From: Candidatus Kuenenbacteria bacterium
GTDB taxonomy: Bacteria; Patescibacteriota; Patescibacteriia; UBA2196; GWA2-42-15
Length of the DNA: 64,000 nt
Assembly: GCA_012797775.1 (NCBI GenBank)
Contig: JAAZOM010000029.1
Location: 3,722 to 67,721, forward strand
Reading direction: 5' to 3'
In this document: positions 3,744-64,000 of the stretch, in pieces
Layout of the letters: every line of letters begins with the position of its first letter
Numbering within the stretch: position 1 is the first letter of the stretch
The notes under the pieces: generated by a model
Databases searched by the model: none
What the model saw: the letters and a program-made list of their open reading frames with translations, nothing else
What the model was told of the DNA's origin: nothing
Made by a program: the position numbers and the translations under genes

Positions 3744-4883
3744 TCAATGGATGGGCCGGATAAATTCCCTTAGTTGATTTATAACTGCTTGTTCCGCCAA
3801 AATCAGTCGGGTTTCTTTTAGTTGAAAACAGGCCCGATTTTTTGTACCAGTGCCCTGCCATGGACTGGCAAGATCAAGGGCGTTGTAGTTGGGTGAGGTA
3901 TAGATCTCTCCATTTATATTGCCAGTATTTGTTTCAAATAAAAGAACGGTAATTTTGATATGCGGGGAACGAGAGAGGAGTTCGTTTACTACGCCCTCTA
4001 GATCTTCAATAGAGCCACCGGATTTTTGAAAGTCAGTTTGGCTGACAAGAGACCAGGCCAGATTATAGTGGGTGTCTTGTTTGAGACGAGCCAAGATGCG
4101 GCCCCAGAGATTGAGGGTGGTGATGCTTTTGTTTTTATTGAGATTATTGATAATGTAGCTTTGATCTGCCCCGAGCTTCATAAGGTAAGAGGCATTGTGC
4201 AAACACTCCGGGGTAATAGCAGGGGTGCGGAAGTTTTCTGTTTTTAAAATAATACCGGAGAGTAGATTGGTAGCAATTTCTGAATTTATGTTTTCTGGTT
4301 GAGTGCTGTTTAAAAGATTGAAAAGCAACTCTGAGCAAGAAGAGGTGTTTAGGCTGATGTGGTTTATCTGCCCAAACCTTTCATTGGCGGGGTGATTGTC
4401 AATATTGATAATAGTAGTTTGGAAAAAAAATTCTGGCTCTTTAGAATAAAGACGCCCAAGAGATTCAAGGTCTTGGCAGCCGGCGGTAATAATTAAGTCA
4501 TATTTATAATTACTGGGTTCTATCGTAATAGATTCTTTTTTAATTTCACCAGACAGGGGGGTAATATAAATTTTTAATTGATTGTTTTTGAGGTTGTAAT
4601 TAAAATCTTTGACGGGATTTTTTTCGACATCTAGAGTTATGATTAGTTTTTTTAGTGGTTCATTGATTGTTTTAATGTTTTCTGAACCAAAGAGAAAAGA
4701 AAATTTATTTTTTAATTTTTCACTCACGACAATATCTGCTGGCTTGTTTATTTTTTGGAGAAACAATTTGAGCGCCAAGATAGAGGCGATGCCGTCGCCC
4801 GTATCGTTTTCGTTAGTAGTGAGTAGAATATGGTGTGAATTTTTGATTAATTCAGAAATTTGTTGGTTGAGGGTGAGAGACAT
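3744..4883 (-). CDS. DHH-family phosphoesterase (NrnA-like oligoribonuclease/pAp phosphatase)
   Basis: N-terminal DTGDGIASILAL motif and a DNH(P) motif, with a DHH/DHHA1-like architecture. Confidence 0.7.
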   Translation of the reverse strand: MSLTLNQQISELIKNSHHILLTTNENDTGDGIASILALKLFLQKINKPADIVVSEKLKNKFSFLFGSENIKTINEPLKKLIITLDVEKNPVKDFNYNLKNNQLKIYITPLSGEIKKESITIEPSNYKYDLIITAGCQDLESLGRLYSKEPEFFFQTTIINIDNHPANERFGQINHISLNTSSCSELLFNLLNSTQPENINSEIATNLLSGIILKTENFRTPAITPECLHNASYLMKLGADQSYIINNLNKNKSITTLNLWGRILARLKQDTHYNLAWSLVSQTDFQKSGGSIEDLEGVVNELLSRSPHIKITVLLFETNTGNINGEIYTSPNYNALDLASPWQGTGTKNRACFQLKETRLILAEQAVINQLREFIRPIH

Positions 4884-11236: not shown

Positions 11237-11794
11237 ATGAAACAGCTCTTGCTTTTCTGCGCGTTTGCGCTTCTGCTGGCGGTCCTGGTGGCCGCATCGC
11301 CCCCGGTGATCCTCGGTGCGATGACCAGCGAATCCAACTTCGGCGCCATCGGCTCGATCGGAAACCCCTGCGAACAGGACAAAAATCTGCAAGGCGGCGC
11401 CGACAACAAATTCCCGGCCGGCGAATTCGCTGGCGCCAATGTCGCCAAGTTGACCTATGCCTATATGACCACCTCAGCCGCCCTGAACGGCGCCGCGACC
11501 GCGAATAAGAACTTTTCGCCGCGGCTGGCCGTCACCACCGACCTCGTGGCATCATCGAAAAACGCCCAGGTCGCTTTGAACGAAATGATCGAATCGATTC
11601 AGACCTCCGGCACGGTAGAGTCCGCCGGTATGGTCGAAAATTACAGCAGAGAATTCGCCGAGAACGGCCGGATCAGTTCGAATGTGGGTGGCGCCGATAA
11701 CAAATTCCAGCGCGCCGTCAGCACCAGCTCCACCCTGTCCGGGAAGAAGAGTGCCGTCGTGAACAAGACCGTGAACTGCGTCTACCGCGCCTAG
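11237..11794 (+). CDS. Secreted hypothetical protein with signal peptide, in a high-GC foreign island
   Basis: N-terminal hydrophobic signal MKQLLLFCAFALLLAVLVAAS. ~60% GC with GCC/GGC/CTG codon usage unlike the rest of the window. Internal repeat GGADNKF occurs twice. Strong terminator follows. Confidence 0.7.
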   Translation: MKQLLLFCAFALLLAVLVAASPPVILGAMTSESNFGAIGSIGNPCEQDKNLQGGADNKFPAGEFAGANVAKLTYAYMTTSAALNGAATANKNFSPRLAVTTDLVASSKNAQVALNEMIESIQTSGTVESAGMVENYSREFAENGRISSNVGGADNKFQRAVSTSSTLSGKKSAVVNKTVNCVYRA

Positions 11795-55200: not shown

Positions 55201-56166
55201 GGGGATATCACCCAAGGTTTGCCAAGGGTAGAAGAGATTTTCGAGGCCCGGCCGGTAAAGAAGCCGGCAATTATTGCGCCGGTGTCTGGCACGGTAGAGA
55301 TAGTTAATAATGAGATCACTAGGGAAAAATTGATTAAGATTGCTGGTGTAGAGACAGAAGAAGAGAAGTTTTTTGTGCAAGGTAAAAACCAGGAAAAGGT
55401 AGCAGTTAAAAATAATGCCAAGGTAAAAAAGGGAGATATTTTAGTGGAGGGGCAGAAAAAAATCAGAGCGCCATTTGACGGCAAGGTGGTGATAGAAGAA
55501 GAAAACGAGAGCCGGACAATACTCAAGGTGGTCAAAGAAGAAGAAGTGGTCAAAGAGATGGAGATAGGTCGTGGAGTGACGATACTCGTCAATAATGGAG
55601 ATTGGGTAGAAAAGGGAGATCAGCTGACCAGTGGCTCGATAGATCTTTTTGAGCTTTATAAACTCAAAGGCCAGAGGGCAGTAGAAAATTATGTGATTAA
55701 AGAAATACAATATGTTTATTCTTCACAGGGTCAGCCGCTTAATGATAAACATATTGAAGTTATTGTGAAAAAGATGTTCTCCAAGGTTTTGATTGAAGAC
55801 GCAGGCGATACACTGTTTTCACCCGGAGAAGTTATAGAGAAAGTCGACTTGGATGAGGAAAATGAAAAGATGGATAAGGAGAAAAAACAAAAGGCCATTG
55901 CCAATACAATACTACTTGGTATTACTAAATCATCTTTAGCTACACAGTCATTTTTGTCAGCGGCTTCTTTCCAGGAAACAACAAGAGTCCTTATTGACGC
56001 GGCTATTACCGGAAAGGTTGATCATTTGAGAGGGCTTAAAGAGAATGTGATTATAGGCAAGCTCATACCCTGTGGTAGCGGCTATGATAAAGAGGCATAT
56101 CTGCCGAAAAGAGAAGTGGAAGTAGAGGAAAGCGAGGAGGCGGTAGGGCTGGCAGAGGAAGCTTAG
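52267..56166 (+). CDS. rpoC: DNA-directed RNA polymerase subunit beta'
   Basis: 1299 aa with a zinc ribbon ([14 protein letters not shown]) and the [12 protein letters not shown] catalytic motif. Confidence 0.97.
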
Positions 56167-56180
56167 GAAATATTTAAAAC

Positions 56181-56220
56181 ATCCCTAGTGAGAACTGGGG
56201 ATGTTTTATTTTTGTAATTT
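56181..56220 (+). terminator. Rho-independent terminator after rpoC
   Basis: ACATCCCTAGTGAGAACTGGGGATGT hairpin followed by TTTATTTTTG. Confidence 0.7.
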
Positions 56221-56253
56221 TTTAACAAGGGGCTTTGCTTTAGGTGGGCTAAA

Positions 56254-56706
56254 TTAAGCTTTGTTTTTTAGTAGCTTGATGGCTTCCAAAGAAAGTGCTT
56301 TTGTATTTTTGGGGGCGCCCCCAAGAGTTTTTATTTCCTTGGCAGTAAACCATTTTAGGTTGGTGGTCTCTCCATTTTGCGGATTAATTTTATTAGATTT
56401 AGCTGAAGCATAATAGATAAAGTCTATATGTTGGTGGAATTGATTGATATTTTCCAGCAAGATGTGCATGGGGCGAAATAATTGCTTGGCATCTCCCATT
56501 TTTATTTGTTTATCAGGATTATACATTGTTATTTCTAGGCCAGATTCTTCTTTTATTTCGCGCAAGGCGGCTTCCTGCGGCAATTCATCGCGGTCGATAT
56601 GGCCTCCAACAGGAATCCAAATACCGAGCTTTTTGTGCAAATGTAAAAGCACTTTATTTTTGTGTACTATTATGGTTGTAGCGGTAAAGTGTCTTGTTAT
56701 TTCCAT
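56254..56706 (-). CDS. NUDIX hydrolase
   Basis: Nudix box GGHIDRDELPQEAALREIKEESGL. Confidence 0.8.
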   Translation of the reverse strand: MEITRHFTATTIIVHKNKVLLHLHKKLGIWIPVGGHIDRDELPQEAALREIKEESGLEITMYNPDKQIKMGDAKQLFRPMHILLENINQFHQHIDFIYYASAKSNKINPQNGETTNLKWFTAKEIKTLGGAPKNTKALSLEAIKLLKNKA

Positions 56707-56734
56707 ATGGAAAATAGCGAAGCGAGTGATGTCC

Positions 56735-56955
56735 GCATAACGTACGCGTGTATGTGATGTCCGCCGTTAGGCGGATATGGGCGAAGGTTCACCGATAGGG
56801 GAACCGTAGCCACATACACGCTGTTATATGATGTACGCTTTTTCTTTTAACCCAATAGGGTCGTTTTTCTGTTATAGATCAAATTGATTTTTCATTTGGC
56901 GGGGGCGCAAGAGGGAAAATCAAAAAGGGTGAATTGCGCCCCCCGCCAACACAAT
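56735..56955 (-). ncRNA. Structured noncoding leader element, copy 1 (upstream of the NUDIX gene)
   Basis: An 11-bp outer stem GCGTGTATGTG/CACATACACGC encloses two hairpins. Conserved single-stranded TGATGT, ATATGGG.G.AGG and GTTATATGATGT blocks. A second hairpin has the conserved loop GAGGGAAAAT.AAAGGGTGAA. It is homologous to 59372-59660 with compensatory stem changes. Confidence 0.45.
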
Positions 56956-56963
56956 CGTATTAA

Positions 56964-58457
56964 TTATAGTGCTCCACCTAGTCGTATATACCCGTCGTAA
57001 GGGGCCGGTGCTTTTTCTCCTGTGATACCTTGGTCAAGGTCGAAACCAATTGATCTATCGGCAAGTCCCTCATCTTTTCCTATTGCGGAAAATAATACTG
57101 AATTTGCGCTGGTGTCTGGCACTTTTTCTTCCCGACGAAAAAAAGATAATTCTGCGTCTGAATCGCACTCACGATCTAAATTTATGGATGACGCTCTAAT
57201 ATCCGTTTCGTCAAGTAGGTCAGCAACATTTTGTCTGCCTTCCATGCTGTCGCGCGCAACATGTGCGTTGCCTAAAATCGCTAACATTTTTCCGCCACCT
57301 TCAACAACTTCGCGAATTTTTTGCATCATGAAGATATCTCGTTGTTTTTCCAGTTCCGCCTCTTTTGCCTTTAAAGTCTCCATTGTCACGCCATTGCGTC
57401 CAAGTGATTCCATACCCCGATCAAGTTCCTGGTTTGTGCCATAAGTCGCATTTGCGTCTATACAAGATGGACGCAAGCCAGACTGGCGTATTGCTTCTAA
57501 CAAACGGTAATTTTTGTCCAAATGGTTTTTGAATAAAAAGTTTTTTTTAAACATTTTTTGTTGTTCAAAAGCGAACATTTCATCAGTTACGCCCTCTCGT
57601 TTGATAGCACGGTATTGTCCTCCTTCATCTCGTTGAAAATCAAATAATGGTTGATTTTTAGGGTCAACACCAGCAGTAAGCTGTTCTCGAAATAATTGGT
57701 GATATTCATCTACTCGCTCGTAGTCGGTCGGGTCGTCTGCGTCGTCAAATTTGCCGGTAGTCATATAATGATCAACTGCCTCTTGATAATACGCTGGTAT
57801 TTCTAAACCTATATGCGTTGTGCCAGCGGCCTTGGCTTGTTCAAGAAATCTTGCTGTTGCTCTTTTTTCAACAGTTTCGTGGGTGTGTATTTCGCCAAGT
57901 AAAACAACATCGTTGCCACGTATTTTATCCGATAAGTATTCGCCCGCATTTTTTGCTCGCTCTCTCACTTGACCCATATCTACTTGTGATTCTAATCTGC
58001 TACGTTCTTTTGAACCTATCCCTAGCTGTTTTTCGCCAACGTAAAATCCAGTAAAAAATTTATTCTTCTCTTTTGGTTTATTTCTCCCTCTCTCAAATAA
58101 ACCTCCTGTTAAAAAATTAGCGACGGACAAAAATCGCTCCTTCATTCGACCAAGAGATAAGTCCAGCCGGCGTAATTTATCCGCTGTTTCTTTTTGAATT
58201 TCGGCAAATTGCGCATTTAGTTCGGGCGGAAATTCGGCACTTGTTTGTTCCTTGCTTTGCAAAGCTGAGAGTGTATCATGTCCGGCTTTCAGCCCTGCGT
58301 CTGTTTCTGTATCAATTTCTCTCTGGATTTTAGAAATATCCGGCAGGCGTTCACGCTCCGGAGTTTCTGGCGGTTTTTCCGCGGTCGCTTCCCGCTGGGC
58401 TAATTTTTCAATTTCCGGATTGGTCATACTGATTGATTTGTTTTTTAACATGCTCAA
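56964..58457 (-). CDS. Hypothetical protein with C-terminal Tiki/TraB/ChaN-superfamily-like domain (two GxxH motifs)
   Basis: VVLLGEIHTHE and AILGNAHVA resemble the paired GxxH motifs of ChaN/TraB/Tiki. N-terminal coiled-coil region. Higher GC than surrounding genes. Confidence 0.4.
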   Translation of the reverse strand: MSMLKNKSISMTNPEIEKLAQREATAEKPPETPERERLPDISKIQREIDTETDAGLKAGHDTLSALQSKEQTSAEFPPELNAQFAEIQKETADKLRRLDLSLGRMKERFLSVANFLTGGLFERGRNKPKEKNKFFTGFYVGEKQLGIGSKERSRLESQVDMGQVRERAKNAGEYLSDKIRGNDVVLLGEIHTHETVEKRATARFLEQAKAAGTTHIGLEIPAYYQEAVDHYMTTGKFDDADDPTDYERVDEYHQLFREQLTAGVDPKNQPLFDFQRDEGGQYRAIKREGVTDEMFAFEQQKMFKKNFLFKNHLDKNYRLLEAIRQSGLRPSCIDANATYGTNQELDRGMESLGRNGVTMETLKAKEAELEKQRDIFMMQKIREVVEGGGKMLAILGNAHVARDSMEGRQNVADLLDETDIRASSINLDRECDSDAELSFFRREEKVPDTSANSVLFSAIGKDEGLADRSIGFDLDQGITGEKAPAPYDGYIRLGGAL

Positions 58458-58584
58458 TTTTCAGCGCGTCAATTTTTGCTTGTGCTTCTTTTACGATTTT
58501 ATTTTTTTCATGCGCAATATCTTGCACACTAGCCTGGTAGTGAGAGAGCAATTTCATGAGCAATTTTGTGATGTTTGTATTCAT
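58408..58584 (-). CDS. Possible 58-aa coupled small ORF
   Basis: Its ATG overlaps the stop of the upstream gene (ATGA), and its 3' end overlaps the annotated start of the downstream gene. Confidence 0.3.
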   Translation of the reverse strand: MNTNITKLLMKLLSHYQASVQDIAHEKNKIVKEAQAKIDALKIEHVKKQINQYDQSGN

Positions 58585-59183
58585 ACGGCTTTTTGTTTTG
58601 AACGTTCTTGTGAGTAGATAAATACTAGTTTTGAATTGCCTTTTTCAGCTTTGATACCAATATCACCAATTTGATTTACATCATATCCAAAATTTTGAAG
58701 ATGTGGCTGTAATTTTTCCGCCTCACCTTTGGGAATGAGCAAGTGCAAACCCTCGCGCGGAATTGATGGATCATTAATTGTTTCAGTGTCAACAAACAAA
58801 ATGATATTTTGTTTTTGTTCCAATAATTCTACCAGCTTACCGACATCTTTTGCCTCAAGACCGCTGGCCTCAATCGTTCGTTTAGCCAAATCGCCGACTT
58901 CTGTGATATCTTTTCCTTTCATTGCCGATAGTGTATTTTCTTCGGCTTGTTCAATCGCGGCTCTTTCAGTGTCTAGCACCGAACTCCTGTCAAAAGAACG
59001 GATGCCGACCTGTTCGCCGTATGCTGTGTTGGCGACAAGTTTTTCTTGGCCAGGTAATCCCACGTAGTATGTTTCAATCGCGTGCGGTTTTTGAGGTTTG
59101 TCTTTTGTTTCTGGAGCGGGTTGTTTAAGTCTGGATTCTTTTGCGATTTGTTCTTGATTGATTTCTCGTGATCTGTTAGGCAT
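58581..59183 (-). CDS. Hypothetical protein (200 aa), part of the foreign cassette
   Basis: ORF with elevated GC and no recognisable motifs. Confidence 0.5.
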   Translation of the reverse strand: MPNRSREINQEQIAKESRLKQPAPETKDKPQKPHAIETYYVGLPGQEKLVANTAYGEQVGIRSFDRSSVLDTERAAIEQAEENTLSAMKGKDITEVGDLAKRTIEASGLEAKDVGKLVELLEQKQNIILFVDTETINDPSIPREGLHLLIPKGEAEKLQPHLQNFGYDVNQIGDIGIKAEKGNSKLVFIYSQERSKQKAV

Positions 59184-59371
59184 ATGTTTTAAAAATATAT
59201 ATTAAATTGTATTCGCTTGCGAGGGATGGAGCAAGCGAATACACCTTGTTTTTCCCTCATAAAATAATTCGTTTCCGCAGCGATAGCGGAGGAAACACCA
59301 TATTAAATGAAAAATCAATTTGATCGTTATAGAAAAACGGGCGACTGCAGGAGCCAAAAGAAAAAGCGTAT

Positions 59372-59660
59372 TTCATACAACGTTTCGGCATATCTGATGT
59401 TTGCCGTAGCGTAGCGGAGGCAAATATGGGTGGAGGCTTTTGTATAAAAGCCGTAACCAGATATGCCGTGTTATGTGATGTGCATGTTTTACTTTAATCC
59501 CGATAGCAATCGGGCTTGCTCTAAAAAAGAATTTTAATTTTGTTTTTTTGTTTTGGATTTTGGGCAGAGGGGTTAGGGGTGAATGCCCAAAATCCAAAAC
59601 TCCTTATTTTGTTTGAGGGAGGGGCAAGAGGGGAAATAAAGGGGTGAATTGCCCCAACCG
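59372..59660 (-). ncRNA. Structured noncoding leader element, copy 2 (upstream of the cassette)
   Basis: Same architecture as 56735-56955, with outer stem CGGCATATCTG/CAGATATGCCG (compensatory). Includes an extra inverted repeat TTTTGGATTTTGGGCA..TGCCCAAAATCCAAAA. Confidence 0.45.
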
Positions 59661-59668
59661 AAAACGCT

Positions 59669-60715
59669 CTATTTCTTTTTTGTATAATATTTATCAAATT
59701 TTTTCACAATATTCGGGCTATAAAAATCTTTTCTGGAACTTTTTGTATTATCAGGATCAAGATAGCGTGTTCTGCTCAAATTTTTGTCTTTCATTAATTC
59801 TTTACGAAGTTTGTGAAATTTACCGTTCGTCTTAAAATCACCAAATCGTTTATTTAATTCTTTTACTAAACCGCGATAATCAAGCGGATATTTTTTCTTT
59901 AAAATTTCTTCCTCTTCAAGCCTCATGGCTGGCGCATTTGGATCATCTGTTATTTGAACGCCTAAACCGTTTTTACTTTTTCCTGCAACTATTGAAACTG
60001 GTTTGACATCTCCAATAAGTCTTAATACTGGCTTTCCTTTTTCTTGAAAATTACCCTGATTTATAAATTTTAATTTTGGAATCAGTTTTTTATCTATGAC
60101 AAGCGTTCCACCTTTCCCAGTTATTTCTCCGCCGATAGTATCCATAATTGCCGCGTTTGTTGGACCAATTTTTGATATTTTTTCAAAATGCTCCAGCCAG
60201 CCTTTTCTTTCCTCTTCTTTAACAAAATCAAACATCGCTATTATTTCCGGATATTTTATCCTTTCACTTCTTGCATTGTAGCGATAATAAATATCTGCCT
60301 CTTTTAATTCGCCATCATTTTTTAGACACACAATCGGTTTTGTCTTTGCTTGTTGCGTATACAATAATCCAATTTTTTTGGTATTTACGGTTATTTCAAA
60401 TTTTTCAAAAATTATTTCTGGGGCAAAGACACTGTTTAGGTACGCGGTAATTTTAGCTTCGTCCACCTCTTCAAAATTATTGCTTTGAAGTCCAACAAGA
60501 TCACGCGGTTTATCTTTTATCCCGAAAACAATATATCCGCCCTTATTGTTTGCAAAAGCAACCATGCTTTTTGCGTATTTGTCTTTTGAATTCCAGTTGA
60601 AAGATTCTTTAAATTCAAGCCACCCACTTTCACGCGAGATTATTCTATCTGCGATTGTTTCGTGGAACAAAAAAATCTTGTTGTATTCATCGTTATTTTT
60701 AAAATCATTGCTCAT
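59669..60715 (-). CDS. AlbA_2 (Schlafen-like) domain protein
   Basis: ESGWLEFKESF and VAFANNKGGYIVFGIKDK match the AlbA_2/divergent-AAA DNA-binding domain signature. Its start is 2 nt after the res stop. Confidence 0.6.
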   Translation of the reverse strand: MSNDFKNNDEYNKIFLFHETIADRIISRESGWLEFKESFNWNSKDKYAKSMVAFANNKGGYIVFGIKDKPRDLVGLQSNNFEEVDEAKITAYLNSVFAPEIIFEKFEITVNTKKIGLLYTQQAKTKPIVCLKNDGELKEADIYYRYNARSERIKYPEIIAMFDFVKEEERKGWLEHFEKISKIGPTNAAIMDTIGGEITGKGGTLVIDKKLIPKLKFINQGNFQEKGKPVLRLIGDVKPVSIVAGKSKNGLGVQITDDPNAPAMRLEEEEILKKKYPLDYRGLVKELNKRFGDFKTNGKFHKLRKELMKDKNLSRTRYLDPDNTKSSRKDFYSPNIVKKFDKYYTKKK

Positions 60716-63008: not shown

Positions 63009-64000
63009 TTATATCCTGTTAATTTCTTTGTAAACTTCAATAATCGGCTCTGGAATATCTTCGACTCTGATATTCGCGGACGAATACTCGCCTTTGTATT
63101 CGTTTTTACCCCAGCTGAAAATATATAAAGCCGTCGGTAAATTTTTCTTTTCCAATTTGGCTATTAACTCGCCGAGCTTTGTCTTGTCTTCCTTAAAATA
63201 AATTGCGGTTAATTTTCCATTACCTTCAAAAATTTGCCACCAATCATTTTTCTCAATTTCATTGAGCGTATCTTCTCGCACCCCGATCATTTCGCCTGCT
63301 TCGTAGGTTATGCGGATTTTCGCTTCGTCCGGCACTTTGTGGATTTGCTCAATGTCCACGAGGTCGGTTTGGTAATAAAAAAGATTACTTGGAATACCAG
63401 CGACTCTCTCATTTTTTTTGTTCTTGTAGCCGTTAATAACTGCCTTAATACGCGGATAGCAAACTGATTCAGCAATTCCGCCGTTTCCACCGTTGTTGTT
63501 TTCGTTGTTGGTGCAAAGAATAAATTTACGATTGCCACCGTCAATCTTGTTCATTTCTAAAACAGCGTGTCCAGTTGTCCCAGATCCAGCGAAAAAATCC
63601 AAAACATTTGCATTTGGACGCGATCCTACAACGGCAAAGAGACAATCGTAAACAGTATAGAGTGACTTAGGAAAGTCAAAATCACACTTTGGTAATATCT
63701 CACGCAAAAGTTTTGTTCCGTATTCACTTGCGTCGTATTTTTTGTCAGTCCAAACAGTTTTATAAGTGCCGTAATCTTTCGCAATCATTATTTGAACAAT
63801 GCCACCGCGTGATTCTTTAATTTGGAGGATGTCTTTTATTTCTTCAACGCTTTGTCGTGCGTATCGCCATTTTCGCTCGACACCTTTTTCGTCAATCGGC
63901 CAAATATAAATACTACCGTCTTTTTGTTTTTCGTTTGCCGATTTTGGATGAAATTCGTTTGACGCAACATCACCAAAACCAATAATCTTTCCACCTTTTA
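63009..64000 (-). CDS. mod: Type III N6-adenine DNA methyltransferase Mod subunit (5' end outside window)
   Basis: DFFAGSGTTGHA (FxGxG motif I) in the C-terminal part. The frame stays open to the window edge. Confidence 0.8.
   Translation of the reverse strand, partial: KGGKIIGFGDVASNEFHPKSANEKQKDGSIYIWPIDEKGVERKWRYARQSVEEIKDILQIKESRGGIVQIMIAKDYGTYKTVWTDKKYDASEYGTKLLREILPKCDFDFPKSLYTVYDCLFAVVGSRPNANVLDFFAGSGTTGHAVLEMNKIDGGNRKFILCTNNENNNGGNGGIAESVCYPRIKAVINGYKNKKNERVAGIPSNLFYYQTDLVDIEQIHKVPDEAKIRITYEAGEMIGVREDTLNEIEKNDWWQIFEGNGKLTAIYFKEDKTKLGELIAKLEKKNLPTALYIFSWGKNEYKGEYSSANIRVEDIPEPIIEVYKEINRI

Follow-up and report, generated by a model that had tools for sequence, protein, structure and literature searches.

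The window, by which we mean the whole stretch of 64,000 nucleotides analysed here, comes from the genome of a Candidatus Kuenenbacteria bacterium, a member of the CPR. Three open reading frames lie where an earlier sequence-only reading had placed them, all on the minus strand, on which they are read in the order 200 aa, 58 aa and 487 aa. Around them, PADLOC assigns the NUDIX gene to PDC-S07, the AlbA_2 gene to PDC-S19, and Res and Mod to Type III models. The features of the region are listed here in the direction of the minus strand.

59373..59478, minus strand: site A (attC-like), with 5' box TCACATAAC at 59478..59470 and 3' box GTTGTATGA at 59381..59373
56741..59380, minus strand: complete gene cassette of 2640 bp; it opens with the TT in the GTT box of site A and closes with the G in that of site B
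59305..59381, minus strand: 5' cassette arm, which matches the 3' arm as its reverse complement
59184..59304, minus strand: 5' UTR of the 200-aa gene; contains two hairpins, one of them at 59207-59243
58581..59183, minus strand: 200-aa accessory gene, present only in some versions of the cassette
58408..58584, minus strand: gene for the 58-aa helical protein, core gene 1, with translational coupling on both sides
56964..58427, minus strand: gene for the 487-aa protein, with a C-terminal TIKI/ChaN/RRSP-like hydrolase domain
56896..56949, minus strand: G+C-rich hairpin, located after the stop codon and ahead of the 3' arm, with conserved loop GCAATTCACCC...CCCTCTTGC
56823..56897, minus strand: 3' cassette arm, which pairs in sequence with the 5' arm
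56733..56831, minus strand: site B (attC-like), with 5' box TCATATAAC at 56831..56823 and 3' box GTTATGCGG at 56741..56733
56254..56706, minus strand: NUDIX hydrolase gene (next cassette; Pfam NUDIX, E=1e-14)

The tight coupling that had been claimed for these genes is borne out: the stop codon of the 200-aa gene and the start codon of the 58-aa ORF share the sequence ATGA, and the end of this ORF overlaps the large gene by 20 nt, given a start at ATG 58427. That start is the most likely one, because gene callers choose it and 14 of 14 homologues open with MT.PE.EK. The large gene thus keeps the place and strand first assigned to it, but its predicted product shortens from 497 aa (from TTG 58457) to 487 aa. 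The higher GC content claimed for the cassette did not hold up. The GC of the three genes is 0.427, 0.345 and 0.410, against 0.404 for the window and 0.407 (sd 0.040) as the mean over genes, which corresponds to z-scores of +0.49, -1.57 and +0.05. Their GC3 is under average (z about -1.2), and with such unremarkable values we rejected compositional foreignness. A sigma-70 promoter scan of 56100-59800 found no promoter on the minus strand; this carries little weight, since the promoters of CPR bacteria may be different.

Sites A and B and the arms of the cassette

The sequence-only reading had described the cassette as bracketed by a duplicated structured leader. Related structured copies are indeed found on either side, at 59492..59365 and 56845..56725, but they behave as DNA recombination sites of an integron-like system and not as leaders. 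Site A (106 nt; covariance model match 59365-59492, 145.6 bits) folds at -36.9 kcal/mol (z -4.1), and site B (99 nt; match 56725-56845, 145.4 bits) at -46.8 kcal/mol (z -4.9); both contain the helices P1-P3 of a three-way junction. The two are mutually 66-77% identical, and site B differs from site A by twelve two-sided compensatory changes; the pair is therefore neither a recent duplication nor the target-site duplication for which a check had been suggested. By the integron rule, site A would be part of the upstream cassette, on the AlbA_2 side, and site B would be the window cassette's own site.

A covariance model seeded from the two window copies recovered 64 copies at E<1e-5 in 50 loci and 86 copies at E<0.01 in 31 loci (individual loci carry L numbers below). 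The elements are palindromes of ~100-150 nt on CPR metagenome contigs. They share a layout consisting of a 9-nt box TC-NNNN-AAC, an asymmetric internal loop of 1 nt by 4 nt, an 11-bp stem with conserved bases, the three-way junction and an inverse box GTT-NNNN-GA. AAC is present in 84/86 elements and GTT in 75/86, with ATT in 8. In the alignment, 94.6% of cells are paired and both sides change in 23 of the 26 pairs, giving a covariation score of 0.604; shuffles scored 0.153 and slid controls about 0.05. Most copies have an unbroken main stem P1 of 11 bp; the 1 x 4-nt loop, which lies between the box and P1, could take the role of extrahelical bases in strand choice. As a specificity control, only 1 of 80 viral contigs with the same loose pattern held a real element.

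Inside the sites, the two ends of the cassette are complementary to each other over ~80 nt (75-80), including a perfect stretch of 21/21 at 59305-59325. The cassette of locus L009 has equivalent arms with its own matching variants, and a four-way alignment with them reveals arm-specific covariation, GATC/GATC versus GACC/GACC. In an excised circular or single-stranded cassette, both ends would pair into one long branched hairpin. Two further structured segments lie between the arms and the genes. Within the 5' UTR of the 200-aa gene, 59195-59260 folds at -19.5 kcal/mol (z -3.9), and this UTR is kept in L009 along with the motif GATGAGGGAAAAACA. The G+C-rich hairpin (-26.9 kcal/mol, z -3.7) has a second copy at 59610-59655, 3' of AlbA_2, and its motif also occurs ~80-150 nt upstream of sites in L009, L155, L181, L202 and L203.

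Arrays, crossover position and recombinase

In eight loci (L017, L109, L127, L135, L156, L161, L163 and L202) the elements form arrays of 3-6 co-oriented copies spaced 0.5-1.5 kb apart, and the ORFs between the copies share one strand. Loci L009 and L010 are 99.95% identical over 3749 nt and diverge directly after ...ACGTT. Of 55 consecutive pairs of sites, 26 show perfect complementarity between the tetranucleotide that follows GTT and the box of the next site downstream, compared with 7 of 52 within the same site and 5.9% of random pairs (binomial P=8e-18). Comparison of the loci shows that strand exchange occurs at the conserved GTT, as in the G|TT crossover signature of integrons, so that the bases 3' of GTT belong to the next cassette. 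The same comparison shows each cassette to carry its own site at its 3' end. From the L009/L010 crossover position and the cross-cassette tetranucleotide rule we infer the boundaries of the window cassette. A DDE transposase gene follows the L010 breakpoint; it is a single case and could reflect an IS insertion into the site.

The loci had been retrieved by the DNA pattern alone, and 12 of them carry homologues of one tyrosine recombinase of 270-280 aa. In 11 of these 12 it is divergently oriented at the head of the array, in most loci 0.2-0.9 kb from the first site. The protein matches Pfam Phage_integrase and SAM_4. One of two copies tested passed NCBIfam NF040815 (XerA; 240.6 bits, cutoff 220), and scores against TIGR02249 'integron integrase' were 208-228 bits, under the cutoff of 265. 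The best PDB match is VchIntIA / IntI4 (2A3V, E=2e-44). For the recombinases of L156 and L161 (275-278 aa) this alignment falls into two stretches that skip IntI4 residues 182-244, and the enzyme aligns end to end with the XerA structures 4A8E and 5HXY. Judged from these alignments, the array-head recombinase is without the IntI-specific insertion, which has been reported to be essential to integron recombination (PMC8138268, PMC9668308). It resembles the 'Cand' subgroup, described as simple Xer-type tyrosine recombinases of candidate phyla (Smyshlyaev et al. 2021, PMC8138268). A longer IntI was found in none of the loci examined.

We propose that at these related loci the divergent recombinase would move cassettes bounded by the sites. 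The window itself has no recombinase gene anywhere and only two sites, 2640 nt apart, with none further in 44-64 kb or the whole window, and no upstream partner of site A within it. What the window contains is therefore a remnant or cluster without an integrase, inserted after rpoC; that recombination has taken place here is something we infer from the other loci. The NUDIX cassette in the window has no 3' site and abuts the rpoC terminator. In L017 and L018 its homologues are flanked by a site on each side; the window sequence diverges from them right after TAATTTA..CAC.TAA. The suggested comparison with empty sites, made through 67 loci of NUDIX relatives, yielded no true empty site, as none of these relatives adjoins the cassette or rpoC. 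The comparison shows that the NUDIX gene is itself mobile.

The cargo proteins

The 487-aa protein has a disordered N-terminus, a helical hairpin at 31-106 and a C-terminal domain at about 140-487. Residues 177-403 match Pfam PF04187 (Cofac_haem_bdg / ChaN; E=1.2e-5), and although the 25.9 bits are under the gathering cutoff of 27.7, the match spans positions 3-206 of the 213 in the profile. The ChaN/Tiki-like GxxH pair recognized by the sequence-only reading is thereby confirmed, as GEIH181 and GNAH389. Across 15 sequences E179, H181 and E209 are invariant, and R363 and H389 are at least 90% conserved. An AlphaFold model (pLDDT 74.9, above 85 in the domain core) predicts an alpha/beta TIKI fold with a parallel beta-sheet core. 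Foldseek matched this model (probability 1.0, E 7e-5 to 5e-4) to BcR135 (top), RRSP, ChaN and HopBA1; for the last two, the target-normalised TM-scores (TMt) were 0.51-0.53.

In a PDB profile search only RRSP was matched (E=1.2e-5), with GEIH/GLE/DAN aligned; GEIH and GLE fall on GEVH and GLEH of RRSP. The catalytic 2His/2Glu residues of RRSP are E3900, H3902, E3930 and H4030 (PMC6254334). In the 487-aa protein the motif appears intact, H389 being assigned through the second GxxH motif. We therefore describe the C-terminal domain as a predicted TIKI-superfamily hydrolase, closest by sequence to the Ras/Rap1-specific endopeptidase RRSP, which is DUF5 of MARTX toxins. The likeness comprises the fold, the motifs GE-x-H, GLE, DAN, R and G-x-x-H, the 2His/2Glu set with the substrate-contact Arg, and an N-terminal helical extension. 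The two proteins differ in that identity is only about 15-18%, the N-terminal region is unrelated to the membrane-localisation domain of RRSP, and the CPR protein is stand-alone and cytoplasmic, and its gene has a small, obligatory partner. In NCBI the product is called 'ChaN family lipoprotein', but the N-terminal sequence holds no signal peptide or lipobox, so the lipoprotein annotation is unsupported.

The 58-aa protein belongs to a family of 28 members of 35-62 aa, whose conservation falls to about 20% identity when distant loci are compared. Its gene lies directly upstream of the TIKI-like gene in every context examined, with an overlap of 4-32 nt elsewhere, except in L210 and L211, where an IS30-like transposase follows it instead. 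The 200-aa protein has five homologues with 57-84% identity; no family was found for it in Pfam, NCBIfam, PADLOC or PHROGs, and its AlphaFold model is unusable (pLDDT 38, 6 sequences). PADLOC (PADLOC-DB 2.0), PHROGs and NCBIfam recognise none of the three products. PDB profile searches with the 58-aa and 200-aa families returned only noise, and a viral fold search in BFVD gave no informative match. Pfam held nothing for the accessory genes of other loci (133, 156 and 177 aa), the L210 ORFs or a high-GC ORF.

The module of the 58-aa and TIKI-like genes is rare: of 1.84 billion representatives, about 11 clusters match at E<1e-30. Its core recurs in many unrelated contexts, in agreement with the earlier view of a discrete, horizontally mobile multi-gene cassette in a defence-rich neighbourhood. 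It lies beside PemK and Fic in L009, Panacea/Fic in L016, AbiEii in L207, GmrSD/PDDEXK in L204 and L208, and genes for a transposase or integrase in L005 and L010. Many copies of the module (L005, L012, L015, L016 and L204-206) have no recombination sites of the type of A and B nearby. We propose that the hydrolase would be a toxic or defensive peptidase and the 58-aa protein its cognate inhibitor or regulator, and that the pair would form an addiction or defence module of the kind often carried by integron cassettes. Defence systems encoded by integron cassettes have been reported (bioRxiv 10.1101/2024.07.02.601686).

Comparison with known systems and alternative explanations

Integrons are the textbook gene-capture platform, and their definition rests on an IntI-specific additional domain, around patch III, that reads folded attC sites. 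Classically, intI lies divergently ahead of the co-oriented cassettes, together with attI and Pc. Classical attC sites measure about 57-141 nt and are imperfect palindromes whose inverse cores are AAC and GTT; extrahelical bases and an unpaired central spacer determine which strand is used. The system described here resembles integrons in its co-oriented arrays with mostly one to few genes per cassette and an imperfect palindromic site after each, in its AAC...GTT inverse cores with crossover at GTT and the distal part of the 3' box belonging to the next cassette, in the divergent tyrosine recombinase at the array head (at the related loci, not in the window), and in a cargo of accessory, toxin-antitoxin and defence-type genes. 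It differs from them in the recombinase, which has no counterpart of IntI4 residues 182-244; in sites with a conserved three-way junction and conserved unpaired nucleotides, and with a 1 x 4 nt internal loop in place of the usual spacer with extrahelical bases; in outer arms of ~80 nt, complementary to each other and placed one at either end of a cassette; and in its hosts, which are CPR bacteria. With a recombinase that lacks the insertion and no clear extrahelical bases in the main stem, it does not look like a canonical integron, and its activity is putative.

The role of Xer proteins is the resolution of chromosome dimers, for which they use one dif site. The recombinases here share with archaeal XerA and the 'Cand' subgroup a length of about 275 aa and the same domain layout, but unlike Xer they adjoin arrays of structured sites and cassettes. 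Taking this evidence together, we read 59380..56741 as one cassette of an integron-like CPR system, carrying a two-gene core and an accessory gene, with a probability of roughly 0.7. To the wider claim, that a widespread integron-like capture in the CPR combines a simple Xer/XerA-like (putative 'Cand'-type) enzyme that lacks the IntI insertion, three-way-junction sites, split arms and, in the window's cassette, a new two-gene peptidase-based toxin or defence cargo, we give even odds.

CALINs are attC clusters that lack an integrase: two or more such sites lie within about 4 kb, and no integrase is in the vicinity. The two window sites, 2.6 kb apart without an integrase, would conform to this definition if the elements are taken to be attC-type sites. 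The window could then be an ordinary integron remnant with normal attC sites, a canonical IntI elsewhere in the genomes, and short recombinases that are unrelated or degenerate. The inverse cores, the lengths of 99-106 nt, the co-oriented arrays with a G|TT signature, the missing recombinase in the window, and the presence of TIGR02249 and IntI4 among the best matches of the array recombinases all agree with such a remnant. We consider it improbable, as the same short recombinase type occurs in 12 independent loci, 11 times in the classic divergent position, without any longer IntI, and as the shared three-way junction and 80-nt outer arms are foreign to canonical attC. Our literature search also found no relevant publication on integrons in CPR/Patescibacteria. 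That the flanking elements are instead transcribed cis-regulatory or processing RNAs, such as a duplicated leader or riboswitch, seems very unlikely. Variation in the stems is almost all Watson-Crick, with G-U pairs in about 2% of P1-P3 cells (23 of about 1258), a scarcity that fits a DNA hairpin better than RNA; no Rfam family was found, at the gathering threshold or at E<5; and copies occur directly after stop codons as well as before starts, beside unrelated genes. An RNA would account for the stable fold, the strong covariation, the conserved unpaired junction nucleotides and the end of site B 19 nt upstream of the NUDIX start codon, but it leaves unexplained the cross-cassette tetranucleotide complementarity and the L009/L010 breakpoint at GTT, and a dedicated recombinase heads the arrays. 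The perfect 21-bp inverted repeat around the three genes (59305-59325 / 56877-56897; ~7e-6 expected in 5.5 kb by our own estimate) could be read as the termini of a non-autonomous MITE- or IS-like transposon. We hold this reading to be scarcely tenable and rejected terminal inverted repeats: the 21 bp make up only the inner portion of conserved 75-80-nt arms that adjoin the GTT and AAC boxes, in L009 likewise, and both a flanking direct duplication and a transposase are absent. The cassette reading accounts for the arms as halves of one long palindrome split by integration.

The function of the cargo is a separate matter, and a toxin-antidote or defence role is plausible. Such a role is compatible with the gene order, the neighbours at other loci and the predicted RRSP-like hydrolase domain. 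As in type II toxin-antitoxin systems carried as integron cassettes, the pair is conserved and consists of a small gene that overlaps a larger one downstream, it is carried in a cassette array, and neighbours elsewhere are toxin-antitoxin or abortive-infection genes. In type II systems the toxin arrests growth, and the antitoxin, which has a DNA-binding domain, neutralises it by binding. Here no DNA-binding family was detected in the small protein, and 487 aa is an atypical size for a toxin; the TIKI-like family is not known in toxin-antitoxin systems. The cargo might otherwise be an erythromycin-esterase-type resistance enzyme, a haem-binding ChaN-type protein, or a host-directed effector of an episymbiont with the 58-aa protein as chaperone. 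The Ere-like BcR135 as top Foldseek match, the match to ChaN and the NCBI product name speak for the former two, and RRSP and HopBA1 are delivered effectors (PMC6254334). Taken together, these functions seem somewhat unlikely to us in view of the N-terminus without a signal peptide or lipobox and the peptidase RRSP as the only PDB profile match. The obligatory overlapping small partner also sets the gene apart from Ere and ChaN genes, for which no such partner is known. The results fit the effector reading and the toxin-antidote reading alike.

CPR bacteria are ultra-small and host-dependent, and they show here the genetic signature of integrons together with a shorter recombinase and sites of a different build. 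If the integron-like reading is true, cassette capture would be broader and mechanistically more flexible than assumed, either as an independent invention or as an ancestral form of integron recombination, and the 'Xer-like' recombinases of candidate phyla would be recast as cassette integrases. Part of the accessory-gene flux in CPR genomes would be explained, and the covariance model together with the boundary rule would offer a handle for mining thousands of CPR cassettes. The 58-aa protein and its RRSP-like TIKI hydrolase are a candidate for a new protease-based toxin or defence pair.

The cassette and its genes

The cassette carries three genes, read here on the minus strand, and is bracketed by two structured elements, site A and site B. 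Retrieved loci and contigs that we compared with the window are denoted by L-numbers.

Features of the cassette region (window coordinates)
59478..59373, minus strand: site A, part of the preceding unit on the AlbA_2 side
59380..56741, minus strand: cassette, 2640 bp
59183..58581, minus strand: 200-aa ORF
58584..58408, minus strand: 58-aa ORF
58427 (start ATG)..56964, minus strand: large ORF, 487 aa
56831..56733, minus strand: site B, the cassette's own site

The cassette is real, with three coupled genes between bracketing repeats, and the tight coupling proposed from the sequence is borne out by an ATGA overlap shared by the stop of the 200-aa gene and the start of the 58-aa gene. The large gene had been placed correctly, while its proposed start at 58457 (a TTG) gives way to the ATG at 58427, which is favored by two independent gene calls and by all homologs, which start MT.PE.EK. 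With this start, the 58-aa gene and the large gene overlap by 20 nt. The suggestion that the genes have a higher GC than the genome did not hold: their GC is 0.410, 0.345 and 0.427 against 0.404 for the window, where genes average 0.407 (sd 0.040), and their GC3 falls slightly short of the average. The source name of an identical protein places the window in a Candidatus Kuenenbacteria (CPR) bacterium.

The 5' untranslated region of the 200-aa gene (59184-59304, minus strand) contains two conserved hairpins and the motif GATGAGGGAAAAACA, all of which are also present in locus L009 (140-320). The motif occurs again at the start of another L009 cassette (3864-3878) and in the IMG/VR contig L236. 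These features may represent a real regulatory leader, or a promoter or ribosome-binding element of these cassettes.

Three observations concern other parts of the window. A 185-aa ORF (11237-11794, plus strand) has 59% GC (z=+4.6) and a GC3 of 0.79, far above all other genes in the window; it has no match in Pfam and none in Rfam at the gathering threshold. This ORF may be of foreign origin, or a spurious one that overlies a non-coding RNA rich in G+C. At just 259 aa, the ORF for the Type III methyltransferase (63009-63788, minus strand, up to 64000) matches only the C-terminal portion of the N6_N4_Mtase profile (positions 139-204 of 221). The gene for Mod looks truncated or split; if it is, Res would have no intact partner subunit. 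Finally, plus-strand GC skew is strongly positive to ~56 kb and negative from ~57 kb, with a cumulative peak at 56-57 kb. This turn coincides with the change from plus-strand genes, of which rpoC is the last, to minus-strand genes; a transcription-strand bias or a replication landmark may lie behind it.

The TIKI-like protein and its small partner

The 58-aa and 487-aa genes form the conserved core of the cargo. They overlap in every examined context except L210 and L211 and are kept together as far as the distant relatives L015, L204/L208 and L207, while the accessory gene upstream varies (200 aa, 131-133 aa, a metallophosphatase or Fic). We counted 28 members of the 58-aa family. The family of the large protein is rare: at E<1e-30, a set of 1.84 billion representatives yielded 11 clusters. 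Family searches, a profile search and an AlphaFold model assigned no family or function to the 200-aa product.

Two further arrangements were observed. An IS30-like transposase (HTH_38 and rve) follows the 58-aa gene in place of the TIKI-like gene in L210 (7001-8198) and L211 (760-1957); in neither locus was any trace of the TIKI-like gene detectable, so the 58-aa gene is orphaned there. L015 (156-2907) holds a tandem of small and large genes, encoding 55 aa and a 437-aa TIKI-like protein, then 61 aa and a 354-aa coiled-coil protein. The second small protein is similar to the first small family; its large partner has the shared N-terminus MRSPESQ and lacks a TIKI domain.

In the AlphaFold model of the 487-aa protein (pLDDT 74.9), the N-terminus is disordered and is followed by a helical hairpin and a confidently modeled alpha/beta domain, which matches BcR135, RRSP, ChaN and HopBA1. 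In sequence-profile searches, RRSP chains are the only solved relatives (E=1.2e-5), and the alignment places GEIH, GLE and DAN opposite E3900-x-H3902, E3930 and DAN of RRSP. Active TIKI enzymes are defined by a 2His/2Glu set (PMC6254334), and the corresponding E179, H181, E209 and H389, together with R363, are all conserved in the family. On this basis the protein probably acts as a hydrolase, with a peptidase as the likeliest kind.

In other loci, the module lies near PemK, Fic, a Panacea-domain antitoxin, AbiEii, GmrSD, PDDEXK and transposases, and a bioRxiv preprint reports defense systems in integron cassettes (10.1101/2024.07.02.601686). We tentatively consider the cargo a toxin-antidote or defense module, in which a TIKI peptidase would be the effector and the 58-aa protein its inhibitor or regulator, and give this reading roughly one chance in three. 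Three rival readings are a small-molecule esterase, a heme binder, and a delivered effector accompanied by a chaperone.

The flanking elements as probable recombination sites

A G+C-rich hairpin (GCAATTCACCC...CCCTCTTGC) occurs in both intergenic regions, as does a ~120-nt segment whose predicted fold arranges an outer helix, an 11-bp stem and two hairpins about a three-way junction; 12 two-sided compensatory changes separate the two window copies. No Rfam family was found for these elements, even at permissive thresholds. A covariance model derived from these copies and run on the loci of relatives detected four copies in the Kuenenbacteria contig L017, flanking a NUDIX homolog on both sides, and further copies in L018, L009-L011, L004 and L024. 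A loose DNA pattern yielded 120 stretches from metagenome contigs, and the majority of those searched were confirmed by the model. Often they form arrays of 3-6 co-oriented copies spaced by 0.5-1.5 kb, with same-strand ORFs between them. As a control, 80 viral contigs carrying the same pattern gave one real element (L236, 10679-10806, 125 bits, at the contig end).

Across 64 copies, 94.6% of cells are paired, two-sided changes occur in 23 of the 26 pairs, and the covariation score is 0.604, compared with 0.153 for shuffles and ~0.05 when partners are slid. Almost all variation is from one Watson-Crick pair to another, with G-U in ~2% of cells in the three inner helices. By the usual behavior of RNA families, such near-exclusive Watson-Crick variation points to a DNA hairpin rather than to a functional RNA.

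The elements end in inverse boxes, TC-NNNN-AAC and GTT-NNNN-GA, which are similar to attC's core sites R'' and R'. Contigs L009 and L010, from different samples, are 99.95% identical over 3749 nt, including a five-gene version of the window cassette, and diverge exactly after the site's ...ACGTT. The integron rule assigns whatever lies beyond G|TT to the next cassette. In 26 of 55 consecutive site pairs (11/21 in a first pass), the four nucleotides that follow GTT are an exact complement of the downstream site's box, against 7/52 within the same site and 5.9% for random pairs across loci (binomial P 8e-18); in the window cassette the match is 3/4 (ATAC versus ATAT). Moreover, in both the window and the L009 cassette, the ~80 nt that follow GTT at the 5' end read as the reverse complement of the ~80 nt ahead of the core at the cassette's own 3' end, and the arm variants are cassette-specific and matched within each (GATC/GATC and GACC/GACC, respectively). 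These arms account for the perfect 21/21 inverted repeat (59305-59325/56877-56897), which we had considered, and rejected, as a transposon end.

At the point of divergence, L010 has a DDE_Tnp_1 transposase gene (3755-4250) directly after the site's GTT. By analogy, it may belong to an insertion sequence targeting these sites, as IS1111-attC elements target integron sites.

The array recombinase and the status of the window

Loci L156 and L161 carry a divergent 275-278-aa tyrosine recombinase at the head of the array. A tblastn search found homologs (39-71% identity) in 12 loci, all retrieved through the DNA pattern alone; the gene is divergent in 11 of them and lies mostly 0.2-0.9 kb from the first site, and one locus (L202) combines it with six sites. 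Among solved structures, the recombinase comes closest to IntI4, the integron integrase of Vibrio (E=2e-44). That alignment passes over IntI4 residues 182-244, which form the IntI-specific insertion that the array recombinase lacks; archaeal XerA aligns end to end. The recombinase passes, or nearly passes, the NCBIfam XerA model and does not reach the integron-integrase cutoff. The insertion is reported to define integron function and to be essential to it (PMC9668308, PMC8138268), and 'Xer-related' recombinases of candidate phyla have been presumed to be Xer substitutes (PMC8138268).

The bracketing repeats noted in the sequence-only reading exist; their identification as a leader was a misreading.

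In the window we found only two sites and no recombinase, which points to a CALIN-like remnant or cluster (attC sites lacking an integrase). The next cassette is the NUDIX gene, whose homologs in L017 and L018 have sites on both sides; the window copy has lost its own site and abuts the rpoC terminator. Relatives of its 150-aa product, 50-84% identical (L017-L077), occur in MAGs of CPR, Chloroflexota, Marinimicrobia and others; the product matches PADLOC's candidate system PDC-S07, and the gene looks like a widely exchanged cassette gene. In L204/L208, a distinct NUDIX gene immediately precedes the distant TIKI module. Across the 67 NUDIX relatives compared, none lies beside rpoC, and no true empty site was found among them; everything that follows rpoC here is clearly accessory. 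Two independent assemblies of run ERR1876141, from ENA and Logan, end 13 nt and 63 nt past the 5' edge of site A (L001/L003 at 59505, L002 at 59555), while the window's own assembly runs on into the AlbA_2 and Type III R-M genes, which fits either a repeat-induced break or strain or population variation in the upstream cassette at the boundary.

Our literature search, limited in reach, found no description of such a system in CPR bacteria. The chief interest of the locus is its bracket, which probably represents an integron-like recombination system of CPR bacteria with atypical sites and a recombinase without the IntI insertion.
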